Part shown: one piece after another, positions 51,793 to 57,945 of the stretch
Layout of the letters: every line of letters starts with the position of its first letter
How positions within the stretch are numbered: position 1 is the first letter of the stretch
Virus record (IMG/VR): IMGVR_UViG_2687453623_000004
DNA: 64,000 bases
Reading direction: 5' to 3' (one strand)
DNA from: a virus
Lineage: Duplodnaviria; Heunggongvirae; Uroviricota; Caudoviricetes
Translations under genes and position numbers: made by a program
Notes under the pieces: model-generated
What the model saw: the letters and a program-made list of their open reading frames with translations, nothing else
The model's database searches: none
Told to the model about the DNA's origin: nothing

Positions 51793-52983
51793 TTAATTGC
51801 TGTTAACCGAGGTGACCAGATTTGCCAGGTATTTATCGGTAATACGCTGGCGCAGGGTCAGGTTTTCAAGAGGAGGCACCGGTGTATAGTCGTAGTCGAT
51901 ATACAGTTTTCCGGCCTTGAGGGTTTCCGCATCGTTGGATTCTTCGCTGAACCAGCAGGTCGCATCCACGATATAGCCGTTTGTTTTCAGCTCACGGAAT
52001 TTGGCATTGATGCCGTCAACGATGTCGCGAATCAGCGTTGCGGTGATGGGCTTGTCCACCGCCCACATGTGCGCCTCAGCCATCGTGTCGGCAAGCACCT
52101 GCGCGGTGCGGGTGTAGTTTTCAAAGAGGAACAGCGGGTCATCAGAGCAGGTACGGTTACCCCAGAAGCGGAAACCGTCACGGCGAATCAGCGTTGTGAC
52201 GCCTGACTCGTTAAGCAGGTCAGCATCGGTACCGGACTCCTGCAAATCCCAGAATACAGAGGCGCTGATGCCGGTAACACCGCTTACCCCGACGTTGGAC
52301 AGCGTTTTATGCCAGCCCTGCTCCTGGTCGATTTTAGCACGCAGGCCCAGTGCACGAGCGGTGGCATACGCGGTGGCGGTGGTACTGGCGACCGTATCCC
52401 ATGCGAGGAAATCCGGCCAGATGACCATCAGCTCACGCTGGCTGAAATTCTGGCGGTAGGCTTTCACCTCGGAAATGGTCTTACAGCCCCATGCGCTGAT
52501 ATACCCGAAAGCGCGCAGCTTCTGACAGACTGATGCCAGTGCGACGGCAACCTCTTTGGTGTCCAGTCCCGGCACACCAAGAATACGCGGTTTAACACCG
52601 GTTACCGACTCCGCCGCCAGCAGGGCTTTCAGTCCGGTGTACTGACCGTTTTCGTCGGTGGTGCCGATGATATTGGAAATGGTCTGCGCAAGTTTCGTTT
52701 CTTCGTCGTCGCCGGTGCCGTCTTCCACACGCACGACAACGGTGACCGGTTTTGACTGGTCGGCGATGGCCTGCAACGATGCCGCCAGCGTGCCTTTTTT
52801 ACCGGCCTTTGCAATTGCGCTCTGCACATTGGTTATCAGCACCGGTTTATTGAGGGGGAAGGTTTCCGCATCCGCATCGCTGGCCGTGCAGACCATGCCG
52901 ACAATGGCCGTGGATACGGTGGAAATGACGCGGGTGCCGTCGTTAATCTCCAGCACCTGCACGCCGTGATGATAGTCACTCAT
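51793..52983 (-). CDS. FI: Tail sheath protein FI
   Basis: 396 aa. Confidence 0.85.
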   Translation of the reverse strand: MSDYHHGVQVLEINDGTRVISTVSTAIVGMVCTASDADAETFPLNKPVLITNVQSAIAKAGKKGTLAASLQAIADQSKPVTVVVRVEDGTGDDEETKLAQTISNIIGTTDENGQYTGLKALLAAESVTGVKPRILGVPGLDTKEVAVALASVCQKLRAFGYISAWGCKTISEVKAYRQNFSQRELMVIWPDFLAWDTVASTTATAYATARALGLRAKIDQEQGWHKTLSNVGVSGVTGISASVFWDLQESGTDADLLNESGVTTLIRRDGFRFWGNRTCSDDPLFLFENYTRTAQVLADTMAEAHMWAVDKPITATLIRDIVDGINAKFRELKTNGYIVDATCWFSEESNDAETLKAGKLYIDYDYTPVPPLENLTLRQRITDKYLANLVTSVNSN

Positions 52984-53070
52984 CCGTTTAACTCCGTGGT
53001 TAATGGGTGCAACTATTTTCTGTTGTGCAGAGCATGAGACGCTATTTGACCTGGCTGGCCAGTGGATGAA

Positions 53071-53106
53071 ACAACAAATAAAGAAAAGGCGGGCAATCAG
53101 CCCGCC
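53071..53106 (-). terminator. Rho-independent terminator upstream of FI, terminating the cargo gene transcript
   Basis: GGCGGGC-AATCA-GCCCGCC perfect stem followed by TTTTCTTTATTT on the minus strand. Confidence 0.5.
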
Positions 53107-53294
53107 TGCCTTGATTTGTTCTCACTCAGCTTCCAACTGACAAGTTACATAATCAAAACGCTATTAAATCTGACAGTCTGCTTTGAGCGATGAACGGACA
53201 TAACGACTCACTAATGACTAATTTGCTAACCGCTTCCGACCCAAAACTGTCGGTTGCATGATAATTAATCCAGCAAGCAAATTCATAGTCATTG

Positions 53295-53771
53295 CTATAT
53301 GTTACTGGGATTATTAAAAGGGATAATACTGGCCAATCCGTCATCAACATCAAGACCATAGGTAACCGCTATTTCTGCCAGAGAGTTACCACACTTTTGT
53401 CGCAGTTTAAAAAGGGCTCGCTCAAGTATGGATATTTGAACAGGATGATCAAGTTGGATAAAGTGAGGGGAGCCAACGCTGTCACAGAATTCTTGGCATG
53501 CTTTTCTCATTTTCCTTAATTGTTTTGCTAAATGTGAATCGCTCGGCAAACCTTGTAGGACTTTAGTCAATTCAGATCTAATGTTGATAACACTCGAAGT
53601 GCAATGACTAGCACCCTCCATGTCGACAGGATTGAAAAGAACGCGCTTGTCCTCAAGAAAAATGACGATCTTCTTCGCTTCGTCAGTTTCTATTATTGGA
53701 GCATTCCACTGAATCCCGAATATGGGACAGCTAAGGCCAGTAATATTTTTATAGATTTGTTCAAATTTCAA
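53295..53771 (-). CDS. Cargo protein of unknown function (158 aa) in the G/FI hotspot
   Basis: AT-rich; apparent TTG start 7 nt after a strong AAGGAG; own terminator; no family recognised. Start codon position by my count is 53770-53772 (one-nt discrepancy with the track). Confidence 0.5.
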   Translation of the reverse strand: MKFEQIYKNITGLSCPIFGIQWNAPIIETDEAKKIVIFLEDKRVLFNPVDMEGASHCTSSVINIRSELTKVLQGLPSDSHLAKQLRKMRKACQEFCDSVGSPHFIQLDHPVQISILERALFKLRQKCGNSLAEIAVTYGLDVDDGLASIIPFNNPSNI

Positions 53772-54030
53772 AAGTCACTCCTTGGATGGACTCTGAGCAT
53801 ATAAAACGCCATACTGATAAACGGACTCGGTTCAAGTAATCTGTTAGATAGCATAACTCGGAACCACTGTAAAAATAGTTGTTAACATACCTAAAAGTGA
53901 CAGCGGAGGCAAGATTCCCTCAGCCGGAGCGATAAATTAGGCATAAGTTATACACACATTAGTAATAATCACTAAAGATATTCTAATTTTTTATGCCGAC
54001 TTAATATGATTTCCCGTCAATCAGGTTAGC

Positions 54031-54054
54031 GTCCGCTCCTGGCACAAAGCGGAC
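54031..54054 (+). repeat. 24-bp hairpin repeat copy 1 (GTCCGCT-CCTGGCACAA-AGCGGAC)
   Basis: Perfect 7-bp stem; second copy at 54954-54977 with 21/24 identity. Confidence 0.6.
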
Positions 54055-54159
54055 GAGGTAACTGAGCTAAAGGTCCGCTGTGAGCGAAAAGTGGACATTA
54101 GAGTTACAAAAGTAAGTTTAAATCATCCAAAATATTACAATATCCTTATCTATCTGATA

Positions 54160-54189
54160 TTGTTATGATAAAAAGTTCCTGAATATAAT
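54160..54189 (+). promoter_or_regulatory. Sigma70-like promoter for the membrane-protein gene
   Basis: TTGTTA, 18-bp spacer, TATAAT; AGGTGG ribosome-binding site 9 nt before ATG 54212. Confidence 0.45.
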
Positions 54190-54211
54190 CGATAGTAGGT
54201 GGTTATTTTCC

Positions 54212-54589
54212 ATGAAATCAATTTTAGAGGTTTTTACTCAAGGAAATACTAAAGAAAAACTGGCTGTTATCGCTGATCTCACAACCATTGCGGGAATATC
54301 GATAGCAACTATTATTGCTGGTTTGTTAACCCTAGTTGCAAAAACAGATAAACTAGATGTTGGAAATCTGTTTGGAGTTGTCATAATATCTCTGCTCGGA
54401 TTGGCTGGTGTTTGCTGTTTTATGGCCCTATTTATTTGGGTTATAACCCAAATGTCTAAACCATGGGGAACACCTCGGGGGATTCAGTCCTTAGTTAAGT
54501 GTGCTATTTCCCTTATCTTTATCTGTATTTTTTTGCTGGCTGTCTTTACATTTTATGAGGTTATTTCTTCGATGAGAATACTCTATTGA
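54212..54589 (+). CDS. Small membrane protein (125 aa, three predicted helices), unknown function
   Basis: AT-rich; hydrophobic stretches IAGISIATIIAGLLTLVA, VVIISLLGLAGVCCFMALFIWVI, AISLIFICIFLLAVFTF; own promoter and terminator. Confidence 0.5.
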   Translation: MKSILEVFTQGNTKEKLAVIADLTTIAGISIATIIAGLLTLVAKTDKLDVGNLFGVVIISLLGLAGVCCFMALFIWVITQMSKPWGTPRGIQSLVKCAISLIFICIFLLAVFTFYEVISSMRILY

Positions 54590-54614
54590 ATATAAAATCA
54601 GCTCTCATAACTTA

Positions 54615-54643
54615 AAAGAGGCCTTCTATAAGGTCTCTTTTAA
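54615..54643 (+). terminator. Rho-independent terminator after the membrane-protein gene
   Basis: AAAGAGGCCTT-CTAT-AAGGTCTCTTT followed by TAATTG. Confidence 0.5.
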
Positions 54644-54953
54644 TTGAATTACCATCCTATTAATCCAGAGAATCTTTATCATCACAAAATAACAAACATT
54701 GGAGATAATTAATAAACTAATCATCCTCAAGATCATCTTTATCTTTACAAAGCGAGTGTCAGTATTCATCCTAACATCAAGTGCAGAATGGAGTATTTTA
54801 TGTATCTTCATGCCGCTTGCACGCTTTATCTCGTTTTTTGTAGGTGGTGTACTATCTCTAAATGACCATTTATATGGTGTAAGACTACTGACTTTAGAGG
54901 GCTATGATCTACATAGTTCTTCTAACCATTATTCTCCAAATAAACTTTACAAC

Positions 54954-54977
54954 GTCCGCTCCTGGCACGGAACGGAC
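54954..54977 (+). repeat. 24-bp hairpin repeat copy 2 (GTCCGCT-CCTGGCACGG-AACGGAC)
   Basis: Same orientation as copy 1; an AATCAGG-like flank lies on the opposite side (CCTGATTAGG). Confidence 0.6.
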
Positions 54978-55642
54978 AGCCTGATTAGGTTTTACTCTGT
55001 GCCATAGATGAGTAATCTCATACCAGAGCTAATACGATTTATTGCGGCATTTCTGGCCATTCTATATCCGGAGCATTTTCCGGCTGAACGCGATTCAGTA
55101 GCACACGGTATTTTTTCCAGTGTGTCAGGCTTAACTTTTCTTCCTCGGTAGCCATATCTAAATCGACAGCATCCTGCAGAGTGCCAATAATTTCACCGGC
55201 ATATGCAATCTGCTCTTTCTTCTGAGACTCCGCCGCTCTGACAAGTGCATCATGCTCTGCATTCTCATCATTCACCCACGCATTTCCGTTCCATTTCTGA
55301 TAATCCCCATCCGGGGAAATGGCTGTCACGTCTGGAGGTAATGCACCAAGTTCAGAAATATAAATGGCTGCTCCCGTTTTCGTTTCGTAGACAGTCTTTC
55401 CGCGATGATCTTCCATCAACTCCCATTTCATTTCATCTGCATTGAAAACGGCTGCATAACCAGCAGGAATATCAGGTGGTGCAATATCTGTACTGTTTGC
55501 AGGCAGACCTGTATGCGGCGGAATATATGCATCACTTTCGCCAATAAACTCATTGGTTGCGTATTACCGTGAAGGAGATCGGTGAGTAACATCGATGGAG
55601 ATCGGTTCGTGTCACTTTCACAGAACCGTTTTTAAATTACCT

Positions 55643-56392
55643 TCACTGATCTCCTTCGGTCAACGGAGATTGTATTTTCCGCATTGATTCTCCTTTAAGT
55701 TCGATCTTGATACTGCCATGAACCAGTCGATCTAGGATGGCATCCGCATGTGTGGAGTCTCCGATCATTTTGTACCAGTTTTCCACCGGCAACTGGCTCA
55801 CTACGATGATTGAGCCTCGTTGGTACATCAGATCCACTATTTCCAGCAGGTCGCTACGCTGTTCTGATGAGAGAGGTTCCAGCCCCCAGTCATCCAGAAG
55901 CAGCAGATCGCTATTATTCAGCCTGGTCAAAAGTTTGCTGTATCTTCCATCAGCATGCCCCTGATAGCACTGTTCCATCAGCGCTTTAAGGCGATAATAG
56001 TAGACCTTGTATCCCTGTCGGCAGGCATTATGACCAAGTGCACATGCCAGGAACGTTTTACCGCTGCCGGTGGCCCCGGTCAGTAAAATATTTTGTTTCA
56101 GGGTTAACCAGTTTCCCTGACTGAGTGAACGGATGAGGGCCCTGTCCAGCCCTCTATTGTTACGATAATCCAGCTTTGATAACTCAGCATTAAGTCTGAA
56201 CCGTGCATGTTTGATCAGACGCTCTGCCTTCCTGTTTTCACGGCAGGTTAGTTCTTCTGCTGTCAGTAATGACAGGCGTTCTTCGAAGCCCAGCTCCTGG
56301 TATGTGCCCGGTTGAGCAAGTTGCTTTTTAAGCGCATCACGGAAGCCGGTGAGTTTAAGTGCGGTCAGTTGTTCGTAAAGATGATTCATCAT
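55643..56392 (-). CDS. istB: IS21-family helper ATPase IstB
   Basis: 249 aa; Walker A LTGATGSGKTF. Confidence 0.85.
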   Translation of the reverse strand: MMNHLYEQLTALKLTGFRDALKKQLAQPGTYQELGFEERLSLLTAEELTCRENRKAERLIKHARFRLNAELSKLDYRNNRGLDRALIRSLSQGNWLTLKQNILLTGATGSGKTFLACALGHNACRQGYKVYYYRLKALMEQCYQGHADGRYSKLLTRLNNSDLLLLDDWGLEPLSSEQRSDLLEIVDLMYQRGSIIVVSQLPVENWYKMIGDSTHADAILDRLVHGSIKIELKGESMRKIQSPLTEGDQ

Positions 56393-56403
56393 TGGATCCC
56401 GTA

Positions 56404-57945
56404 TCAGTGGTAATACTCACTGCCGCGTACGTTTTCGTGTTCCATCGTGGATAACAGATCTGGTTTTGGATCCTGAACAGGTTGTTTATCCAGACCTTTT
56501 TCCAGGATCGATTTAATACCTGACAGACGCCATACCTTTGTTTTCAGAGCTCTTGCACATGCTGCATTAAGTCTGGCTTTACTGTATTTTTTATGAAGGT
56601 TCAGGAGTCCAAGGCAGAAGCGATAGCTTTGTTCCGGATGTGGACGAGAGTTCAGTATATGAAGCACATAACTATGAGTTTCACTGCCTATGTGCCCCGC
56701 CCATTCCAGAAGACGCTCTGGCGTCCAGGTGGCATGCTGTCGATGAGCTTCAGGCATGTGCTCGTTGCGGGTACTGTAGCCATAAGTACGCTTGCGCGGG
56801 TGCACAGCAACCTCCTGCCCCTGATTGAAGAGTCTTACCAGTTCTCCGGAGATCCATGCTTCCAGTTGCTGGCCTAACAGCGAACATGGAACCGAGTAGT
56901 AATGTTTGTCGATTTCCACGTGGTAATCGGCATGAACTCTGACTTTCTTCACCAGGGTGTAACTGTAACTGGCTTCAGGAAGAGGCTTCAGTGCGGGTTT
57001 ATCAAGCTGGATGAAGAGTTCTGCACGTGAATAACCCAACTTCTGCATTATTTTGTTATTCAGTCTTTCCAGCAACTCCCGAATGCGCTGATTAAGCGAT
57101 GCAAGGCTGTAGAAGATCTCATGCCTGATTCGGGCCATGATCCAGCGTTCAACAACCTGAACGCCAACTTCAGCTTTGGCTTTATCTTTCGGTTTACGTG
57201 GCCGCGCAGGCAAAACTGCGACATTATAATGCTCAAGCATCTGCTGGTAGGTAGGGTTAACGTCAGGATCATACTTACATGCCCTGGATGTGGCGCTTTT
57301 CAGATTGTCCGGAACAACAAGTTCAGGAACGCCACCCAACCACTGGAAGCAGCGAACATGACTCATCACCCAGTCTTCAAGCTGCTGAGACCAGGTGGCC
57401 TCTGCCCATGTGTAACTTGATGCCCCGAGAACAGCTACGATGACCTGAGCAGTTCTTATTTCTCCGGTCTCAGGGTCGGTAACGCCAACGGTAGGTCCAC
57501 AGTAATCAACGAAAAGTTTTTCGCCAGCTTTATGTACCTGACGCATTGATGGTGAAGTGGTTTTGAGCCATTCACGGTACATCCGGCAGTAATGGTTATA
57601 GCTGTAAAAACCGCCTGGATTACGCTCACAGTATTCTTCCCAGAGTAGCTGCAGCGTCACGCATTTATTACGCAGTTCCCGGTGTACTGTAGCCCAGTCA
57701 GGCAGAGAGTGCTTCTTCATCTTAACCTGGGTCTGAAGGAACGCATGTTTTAGTTTTGTATCATCCCATCCTGTAGGTAAGGGCCACTGCTTTATGCCAA
57801 GTTGAGCCGCCCGATTAGCATATCTGGATACAACGGAAGGGGAGATTGCAAGACTACGACCAATTTGTCGATGGCTGAGTCCAACACCGTATTTAAGCCT
57901 AAGAATTTCTTTAAGTTTTCTCATAGAAATTGGAACTGTTGGCAT
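56404..57945 (-). CDS. istA: IS21-family transposase IstA
   Basis: 513 aa; N-terminal HTH; upstream of istB. Confidence 0.85.
   Translation of the reverse strand: MPTVPISMRKLKEILRLKYGVGLSHRQIGRSLAISPSVVSRYANRAAQLGIKQWPLPTGWDDTKLKHAFLQTQVKMKKHSLPDWATVHRELRNKCVTLQLLWEEYCERNPGGFYSYNHYCRMYREWLKTTSPSMRQVHKAGEKLFVDYCGPTVGVTDPETGEIRTAQVIVAVLGASSYTWAEATWSQQLEDWVMSHVRCFQWLGGVPELVVPDNLKSATSRACKYDPDVNPTYQQMLEHYNVAVLPARPRKPKDKAKAEVGVQVVERWIMARIRHEIFYSLASLNQRIRELLERLNNKIMQKLGYSRAELFIQLDKPALKPLPEASYSYTLVKKVRVHADYHVEIDKHYYSVPCSLLGQQLEAWISGELVRLFNQGQEVAVHPRKRTYGYSTRNEHMPEAHRQHATWTPERLLEWAGHIGSETHSYVLHILNSRPHPEQSYRFCLGLLNLHKKYSKARLNAACARALKTKVWRLSGIKSILEKGLDKQPVQDPKPDLLSTMEHENVRGSEYYH

Follow-up and report, generated by a model that had tools for sequence, protein, structure and literature searches.

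The P2-like Escherichia coli prophage in the window (the whole 64,000-nucleotide stretch of DNA analyzed here) carries, between its tail genes G and FI, a TTG-initiated gene of the DUF6650 family. Judged by sequence comparison, this is a real gene under purifying selection, and its product (the window protein) belongs to the far larger, solitary core of the DUF6650 family. The chances seem to us about even that the gene is a lysogen-expressed, solitary single-gene anti-phage effector of the abortive-infection type. The gene and its ribosome-binding site are located as follows:

53295..53771, minus strand: DUF6650 family gene, 158 aa, TTG start (ORF list, Pfam PF20355, PHROG 29952, PGAP, dN/dS)
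53778..53783, minus strand: Shine-Dalgarno sequence AAGGAG, 6 nt before the TTG (AAGGA invariant in 11 aligned relatives)

The open reading frame at 53295-53771 has 158 codons, the first of them TTG, and its sequence is MKFEQIYKNITG. The nearest upstream in-frame stop lies two codons before the TTG, the first internal in-frame ATG is codon 51, and the N-terminus MKF.RIYKNITGLSCPIFGIQW is kept from residue 1 in the alignment of relatives, all of which indicates that the TTG start, already proposed in the first-pass annotation, is right. The PGAP coordinates of the gene are identical to ours. A shorter product initiated at an in-frame ATG, which that annotation had named as the finding that would overturn its gene, is very unlikely, since the relatives are conserved from residue 1 and the next ATG comes only at codon 51. 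The annotation had also seen the AAGGAG before the start codon, which is present at 53778-53783, with a spacing of 6 nt instead of the 7 nt given there.

The TTG behind an AAGGAG is retained in 11 of the 12 closer gammaproteobacterial relatives examined. Relatives with this arrangement come from Shewanella, Pseudomonas, Edwardsiella, Pectobacterium, Klebsiella, Halomonadaceae, Idiomarinaceae, Thioalkalivibrio and Guyparkeria; the Aeromonas relative has an ATG start. Across 78 relatives aligned from residue 1, we counted ATG (53), TTG (16) and GTG (6) as start codons, which makes the TTG a trait specific to the gammaproteobacterial branch. The values of dN/dS between the gene and eight relatives were 0.08-0.46 (Nei-Gojobori), and 100 database relatives of the protein were found (best E = 2e-93), placing the gene far beyond a chance ORF. 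In distant gammaproteobacterial relatives, we also observed a nearly invariant motif, GTTATGTGT, about 20-28 nt before the start codon and 5' of the ribosome-binding site; the window copy, like its nearest relatives in E. coli, has GCTCAGAGT in its place.

By hmmscan, the window protein matches Pfam PF20355 (DUF6650) with 60.7 bits, against a gathering cut-off of 27 (E = 2e-16), and its relatives score 47-96 bits on the same profile, covering profile positions 3-146. It is a true member, in which nothing departs from the rest of a family that has no assigned function. PHROG 29952 matches the protein over its full length, and the exact sequence is found in RefSeq as WP_001576672.1 (“DUF6650 family protein”), from 344 contigs; neither a PADLOC (2023) model nor an NCBIfam entry matched it. 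A scan of 1.84 billion representatives returned 1,713 DUF6650 clusters (E <= 1e-3), nearly all of them of 150-175 aa and starting at residue 1. The family has a broad and patchy spread across phyla, almost always as a solitary gene, and 150 family representatives showed no informative domain fusions.

Residues T11, G12, P16, F18, G19, W22, R43, C57, S60, R65, R89, R124 and G128 and the C-terminal IIPFN are invariant or nearly so. Three Cys and one His had been reported for the protein; the actual count is five Cys (15, 57, 92, 96, 127) and four His (56, 80, 103, 109), among which only C57 is invariant. The predicted monomer (pLDDT 78) is an all-helical, generic four-helix bundle and has no specific structural match, consistent with the earlier remark that no catalytic motif was recognizable. 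The window protein is a single-domain helical protein, predicted to be soluble. Beyond DUF6650, no toxic, enzymatic, DNA-binding or other functional domain was detected in it. The remote-homology and structure searches suggested in the first-pass annotation, once run, thus gave the PF20355 assignment above cut-off and a weak profile match to ThsG, but no specific fold match.

Predictions of a defence role exist for this family. DefensePredictor (PMC13092281) lists DUF6650 among the domains newly implicated in defence. Its predicted novel defence genes include that for WP_010377994.1, an E. coli DUF6650 protein of 158 aa (log-odds 6.5), which is not on the list of tested systems. The same study validated DS-27 “SMEK”, a single-gene E. 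coli system whose C-terminus resembles DUF6650 by HHpred (probability 0.88, PMC13092281). DS-27 is comparable to the window gene in being a single-gene E. coli system with a DUF6650 match reported by its authors, but it has 299 aa and an N-terminal SMEK domain. We rejected its C-terminus as a homologue of the window protein, as the profile comparison was not significant.

We inspected the surroundings of the gene in 80 related loci; clustering 89 adjacent genes by BLAST and scanning them with Pfam showed no conserved neighbour. Immediate neighbours include genes with AbiEii, type I methylase, RmrA, caspase, HEPN/Toprim and Mrr domains, and many others are ordinary metabolic genes. The abundance of the latter, together with the generic helical fold, would suit a role outside defence: the gene may encode a small regulator or adaptor that aids the host, or be a selfish, toxin-like gene that stabilizes its cassette. 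Its hotspot location would then only reflect the tolerance of P2 to insertions, and P2 hotspots do hold non-defence cargo, e.g., partition systems and cytolethal distending toxin (PMC9122126). Nevertheless, the broad, patchy and solitary spread of the family, its frequent mobile-element and defence neighbours, and the machine-learning prediction lean towards conflict systems, and no DNA-binding or other functional domain was detected that would point to such a role. We consider a non-defence function possible, but rather unlikely.

The slot in which the gene resides is bordered by two tail genes:

51793..52983, minus strand: tail sheath gene FI, downstream border of the slot (ORF list, RefSeq)
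55039..55431, minus strand: C-terminal part of the tail fibre assembly gene G, upstream border of the slot (Pfam Caudo_TAP, 1e-40)

The host element is a P2-like E. coli prophage inserted between pflB and pflA, with the gene order ogr, D, U, T, E, FII, FI, slot, G (cut by ISEc12), H, I, J and other late genes. The DUF6650 gene had been described as cargo co-oriented with the late genes, and both points are confirmed: it lies on the same strand as FI, FII and G, and it occupies the variable G-FI slot, is absent from sister prophages for which the 871-bp insert is the sole difference, and has 40% GC (gene and cassette), versus 57% in FI. Position between G and FI, absence in sister prophages and foreign base composition are the marks of cargo of the Z/fun slot, and the gene shows all three. 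P2 Z/fun is a T5-exclusion gene. In a recent survey, the tail-gene region of P2 is described as a hotspot of defence and accessory genes (PMC13586616). When the insert is compared with Z/fun-region cargo such as ORF1 of the P2-EC67 Z-region (AJ512685), the similarities are the G-FI slot (the classical Z/fun position), the low GC content, the flanking inverted repeats, the same conserved backbone adjoining, and expression in the lysogen, which is presumed. The differences are that the encoded protein is unrelated, and that the window prophage carries two tandem cassettes. Elsewhere in the prophage, the other hotspot, between portal gene Q and replication gene A (contig L008, 33211-36533), contains four genes, three of which match the PADLOC candidates PDC-S31 (a DUF2971 protein), PDC-M18A and PDC-M18B; none encodes a TIR.

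Comparison with a sister P2-like prophage, from E. coli KSC207, and a search for repeats delimited the two cassettes (R1 to R4 denote the repeats):

53202..54072, unstranded: 871-bp insert with the DUF6650 gene (by comparison with the KSC207 prophage, which lacks it)
53176..53201, unstranded: R1, 26-nt repeat (GTCTGCTTTGAGCGATGAACGGACAT) at the junction of cassette and P2 backbone (repeat search, KSC207 comparison)
54031..54054, unstranded: R2, imperfect palindrome (GTCCGCTCCTGGCACAAAGCGGAC) at the cassette end on the promoter side, approximately an inverted R1 (exact pattern match)
54073..54098, unstranded: R3, 26-nt direct repeat of R1, opening the neighbouring cassette (repeat search, KSC207 comparison)
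54954..54977, unstranded: R4, palindrome 88% identical to R2, at the far end of the neighbouring cassette (repeat search)
54212..54589, plus strand: gene of the neighbouring cassette, 125-aa predicted multi-pass membrane protein, divergent from the DUF6650 gene (PHROG 4155)

The window segments 52700-53201 and 54073-55062 adjoin each other in KSC207, with one 26-nt GTCTGCTTTGAGCGAAAAGTGGACAT common to both, and we conclude that the 871 bp are an insertion at the repeat. This single copy is a hybrid, its left part being that of R1 (53176-53201) and its right part that of R3 (54073-54098). The presence of one hybrid copy where the DUF6650 cassette is missing indicates that cassettes are exchanged by recombination within the repeat. 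Cassette swapping in the P2 and P4 hotspots is still called unexplained by the latest survey; our pair of an empty and a filled site documents an exchange at the 26-nt repeat.

Altogether, four imperfect palindromes of 24-26 nt (GTCCGC...GCGGAC) bound the two tandem cassettes, and the repeat pattern has 10 matches window-wide, versus 3.3 expected. R2 accompanies the cassette in the O111, EC01307 and Pectobacterium copies. Repeat-flanked cargo at the Z-region slot of P2 was reportedly described by Nilsson et al. in 2004. In GenBank entry AJ512685 (P2-EC67 Z-region), the cargo is annotated as lying between a left and a right inverted repeat; the “right inverted repeat” maps to window positions 53109-53199, and R1 falls in the homologous stretch. 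Repeat-flanked cargo at the G-FI slot was thus already on record.

The conserved block, repeats included, starts ~330 nt before the gene and runs to ~120 nt beyond its stop codon. It recurs in an IS-rich island of an O111:H8 strain, at the edge of another prophage, and beside a nuclease/helicase pair (in E. coli 14EC033, the DUF6650 gene adjoins an ATP-dependent nuclease/helicase pair), as well as in an Edwardsiella lambdoid prophage, in Klebsiella and in Pectobacterium. The 871-bp cassette has evidently moved between prophages and islands. Among 5,426 complete E. coli genomes, 17 have the whole segment 53000-55500 and 27 have the DUF6650 gene.

The membrane protein next to the gene has no Pfam family and resides in a cassette of its own, of 35% GC, with a hairpin (54612-54643) after the gene. 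It is found without the DUF6650 cassette in many prophages, and is far commoner than that cassette in P2-like prophages. We considered that it could be the split TM half of a ThsG-like effector, and rejected this possibility on the grounds that the two genes lie in separate repeat-bounded cassettes and occur independently.

Three elements near the ends of the DUF6650 gene may bear on its expression:

53075..53107, minus strand: intrinsic terminator of the P2 backbone, just upstream of FI (8-bp GC stem and T-run, inside the segment 53000-53201)
53845..53873, minus strand: weak candidate promoter, TTTACA-17 nt-TATCTA preceded by TG (read from the sequence, missed by the consensus scan)
53768..53854, minus strand: 28-codon upstream ORF whose TGA overlaps the TTG start (TTTTGA), of uncertain significance

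The hairpin at 53087-53107 has an 8-bp stem (AGGCGGGC/GCCCGCCT; seven of the eight pairs are GC) and a 5-nt loop, followed on the minus strand by TTTTCTTTATTT. The T-run comes directly after the stem and reaches down to 53075, the structure expected of a Rho-independent terminator, and the folding z-score is -4.0. A hairpin with a T-run before FI had been annotated earlier at 53071-53106 with a 7-bp stem, and this feature is real, although the stem measures 8 bp and maps to 53087-53107. Its attribution to the DUF6650 gene, as a terminator of its own, did not hold. The hairpin lies 188 nt past the stop codon, beyond the end repeat of the cassette, and within the segment 53000-53201 (200 bp), which is common to P2 and to 46 other P2-like phage records with different cargo, at 88-92% identity. 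Being outside the cassette repeat and inside shared P2 sequence, it is the backbone terminator of the slot, and closes the slot before the FI late operon.

On the upstream side, the divergent gene and the terminator-like hairpin at 54612-54643, with 14-bp arms, separate the DUF6650 gene from G. The gene is thereby cut off from G, so that it would need its own promoter, and this same shielding makes constitutive expression in the lysogen plausible. Our consensus scan found no strong sigma-70 consensus nor any convincing promoter for the gene; the candidate promoter stretch 53845-53873 is invariant in seven close copies. We found no sign of a structured leader or riboswitch upstream of the gene (no match in Rfam, folding z = +0.66), and an exact pattern search upstream of FI found no Ogr-type TGT-N12-ACA dyad. 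The 28-codon upstream ORF reads MLSNRLLEPSPF..., and its first 13 codons are conserved in close relatives, with some synonymous changes. Its stop position varies, and in Klebsiella and Pectobacterium the ORF has 17 codons. This may be a leader peptide, or the region may simply be a conserved promoter.

DUF6650 has been linked to anti-phage defence through type VI Thoeris, which, according to a 2025 preprint, consists of a TIR protein (ThsB) and the DUF6650 effector ThsG, and is triggered by 2'cADPR. The preprint models ThsG as a homo-hexameric tube with ligand pockets and reports that sequestering proteins counter the system; its authors leave unclear by which route a TM-less ThsG is toxic. 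We retrieved the validated Bacillus-scaffold type VI systems, Ga0102589 (contig L097) and Ga0268252 (contig L100), whose TM-less ThsG proteins have 173 and 171 aa, respectively:

L097 2718-3239, strand not given: TM-less ThsG gene (validated effector)
L100 4526-5041, strand not given: TM-less ThsG gene (validated effector)

A single-sequence TIR query had returned nothing in the metagenome scan; the validated type VI loci came up with an alignment as the query. In the E. coli-type system, ThsG has N-terminal TM helices, and the system lies in the A-Q hotspot of a P2-like prophage. Metagenome contigs L089 (4309-5618) and L090 (3583-4931) contain, in such a hotspot, a pair of TM-ThsG and TIR with 90% TIR identity to the validated E. 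coli pair. Pairs like these were seen in 78 of the 5,426 complete E. coli genomes, 22 of the places being on plasmids.

The window protein resembles ThsG in size (171-173 aa in the TM-less proteins), in being found, like it, in a P2-like prophage hotspot of E. coli, and in a weak, collinear profile match: by hhalign, the window family and ThsG align over residues 1-105, including W22 and R43, with E = 9e-4 and a probability of 22%. Unlike ThsG, the window gene has no adjacent TIR, and whereas the E. coli ThsG has N-terminal TM helices, the window protein is predicted to be soluble. The two groups also fail to detect each other with HMMs. The family HMM of the window protein has no match to the validated ThsG proteins, and an HMM made from 18 ThsG proteins encoded beside a TIR, the two validated Bacillus-scaffold ones among them, recovers the E. 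coli TM-ThsG and has no match to the window protein at E <= 10. Given the lack of cross-detection and the weak hhalign match, the relation to ThsG is remote at best. The validated ThsG proteins miss Pfam PF20355 by hmmscan (with no match at E <= 0.1 for the TM-less ones), and their published DUF6650 label evidently rests on a more sensitive comparison. As a practical consequence, searches for ThsG via Pfam DUF6650 will mostly return TIR-less proteins like the window protein.

We searched for TIR genes with HMMs of both type VI TIR clusters and 28 assorted Thoeris TIR sequences, and found no TIR ORF in the 64-kb window; there was none elsewhere in the prophage either, including its other hotspot. 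Among the 80 related loci, only two had a TIR gene within 6 kb, one in Pseudomonas (L012) and one in Flavobacterium (L066). Finally, none of the 60 listed E. coli records with a type VI pair is among the 27 genomes carrying the window gene. The remote similarity to ThsG and the absence of a TIR partner indicate that the window protein is probably not a type VI Thoeris component.

The protein could still be a detached Thoeris-like effector, that is, an orphan receptor of ThsG type that would bind 2'cADPR or another TIR-made ADPR derivative, supplied in trans by a TIR protein that the host encodes at another locus or that an invading element brings in, and would then arrest growth. The remote collinear similarity to validated ThsG, which its authors place in DUF6650, speaks for such a receptor, as do the two TIR-adjacent loci among the 80 and the carriage of E. 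coli type VI Thoeris by P2-like prophages (A-Q hotspot). One may speculate that the conserved Arg residues, W22 and the Gly/Pro-rich N-terminal loop suit a nucleotide pocket, which R43, R65, R89, R124, W22 and the motif TG..P.FG could line. These points are countered by the lack of a TIR ORF in the window and the rest of the prophage, by the lack of a TIR within 6 kb in 78 of the 80 related loci, by the fact that the type VI pair and the window gene share none of the 60 listed records and 27 genomes, and by the failure of the ThsG HMM to find the window protein. Overall, we deem an in-trans receptor improbable.

A small, soluble, phage-borne protein without an output domain could also act against defence. 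As an effector-less oligomer, it would soak up cyclic ADPR-type signals and thereby blunt Thoeris for the benefit of P2. Sequestering proteins are already known to counter type VI Thoeris, and the distant relative ThsG has been modelled as a hexamer with ligand pockets. With Tad1 and Tad2, small phage-encoded oligomers that bind TIR products, the likeness is one of functional analogy only: genomic setting, sequence and fold differ, and our sequence and fold searches gave no Tad1/Tad2-like match for the window protein. The family is moreover overwhelmingly cellular, with no tblastn match in 50,697 phage records and only nine loci in 2.9 million viral contigs, five of which are the window E. coli variant (97-99% identical). 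The gene is also present in non-phage islands, and in the prophage it occupies a lysogenic-conversion slot, between a terminator and a terminator-like hairpin, rather than an early lytic operon. Furthermore, a stoichiometric sponge needs abundance, and the conserved weak start is better suited to a dangerous protein. An anti-defence sponge thus appears to us very improbable.

We favour instead a single-gene effector. The gene would be transcribed from its own promoter in the lysogen, and the TTG start would keep translation low despite the strong ribosome-binding site. The protein may form a homo-oligomer, like its distant relative ThsG, and a cue made during infection, possibly a nucleotide-like ligand, would activate it without a dedicated TIR signal generator. 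The activated protein would halt the growth of the infected cell, which would shield both the prophage and its lysogen population against competing phages. In this scheme, which we hold to be about as likely as not, the cell would tolerate the protein at a low basal level until infection switches it on. The hotspot location, the single-gene mobility and the defence-type neighbours argue for an effector, as do the machine-learning score, the distant kinship with ThsG, itself a growth-arrest effector, and the conserved weak start. The PDC-S31 and PDC-M18 candidates in the other hotspot of the prophage also count for it. Against it count the remoteness of the relation to ThsG and the lack of a toxic domain, of a PADLOC model and of a convincing promoter.

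The gene, the family name and the repeat-flanked slot are all previously on record, and in this respect our finding is largely ordinary. As far as the searchable literature shows, however, it has not been described that core DUF6650 genes are overwhelmingly TIR-less single-gene mobile cassettes, and that true ThsG proteins are only a distant branch. If a solitary DUF6650 protein defends alone, a ThsG-like module would work without TIR, raising the question of the cue that it senses, and a compact one-gene system, of 0.9 kb with its control region, would join the repertoire of the P2 hotspots. The conserved TTG start would provide a simple handle on dose-dependent toxicity. It is a long shot that TIR-less DUF6650 proteins, with the window protein as a typical mobile representative, form a large unrecognized class of single-protein immune modules that sense a nucleotide-like cue directly, or else that the prophage copy is a signal-draining decoy. 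In such modules, the cue could come from the phage or from a TIR elsewhere in the cell, and the pocket may have the same oligomeric architecture as that from which ThsG derived.

The carriers of this locus are mostly human clinical E. coli isolates, at least one of them typed as O25:H4. In the window prophage, RefSeq marks G as interrupted, with istA and istB alongside. The interruption is due to the IS21-family element ISEc12 (55643-57945), which splits G and encodes istB (55643-56392) and istA (56404-57945). In strain CCUG 73778, the tape-measure gene is frameshifted as well. Although probably defective, the prophage keeps its cargo intact.
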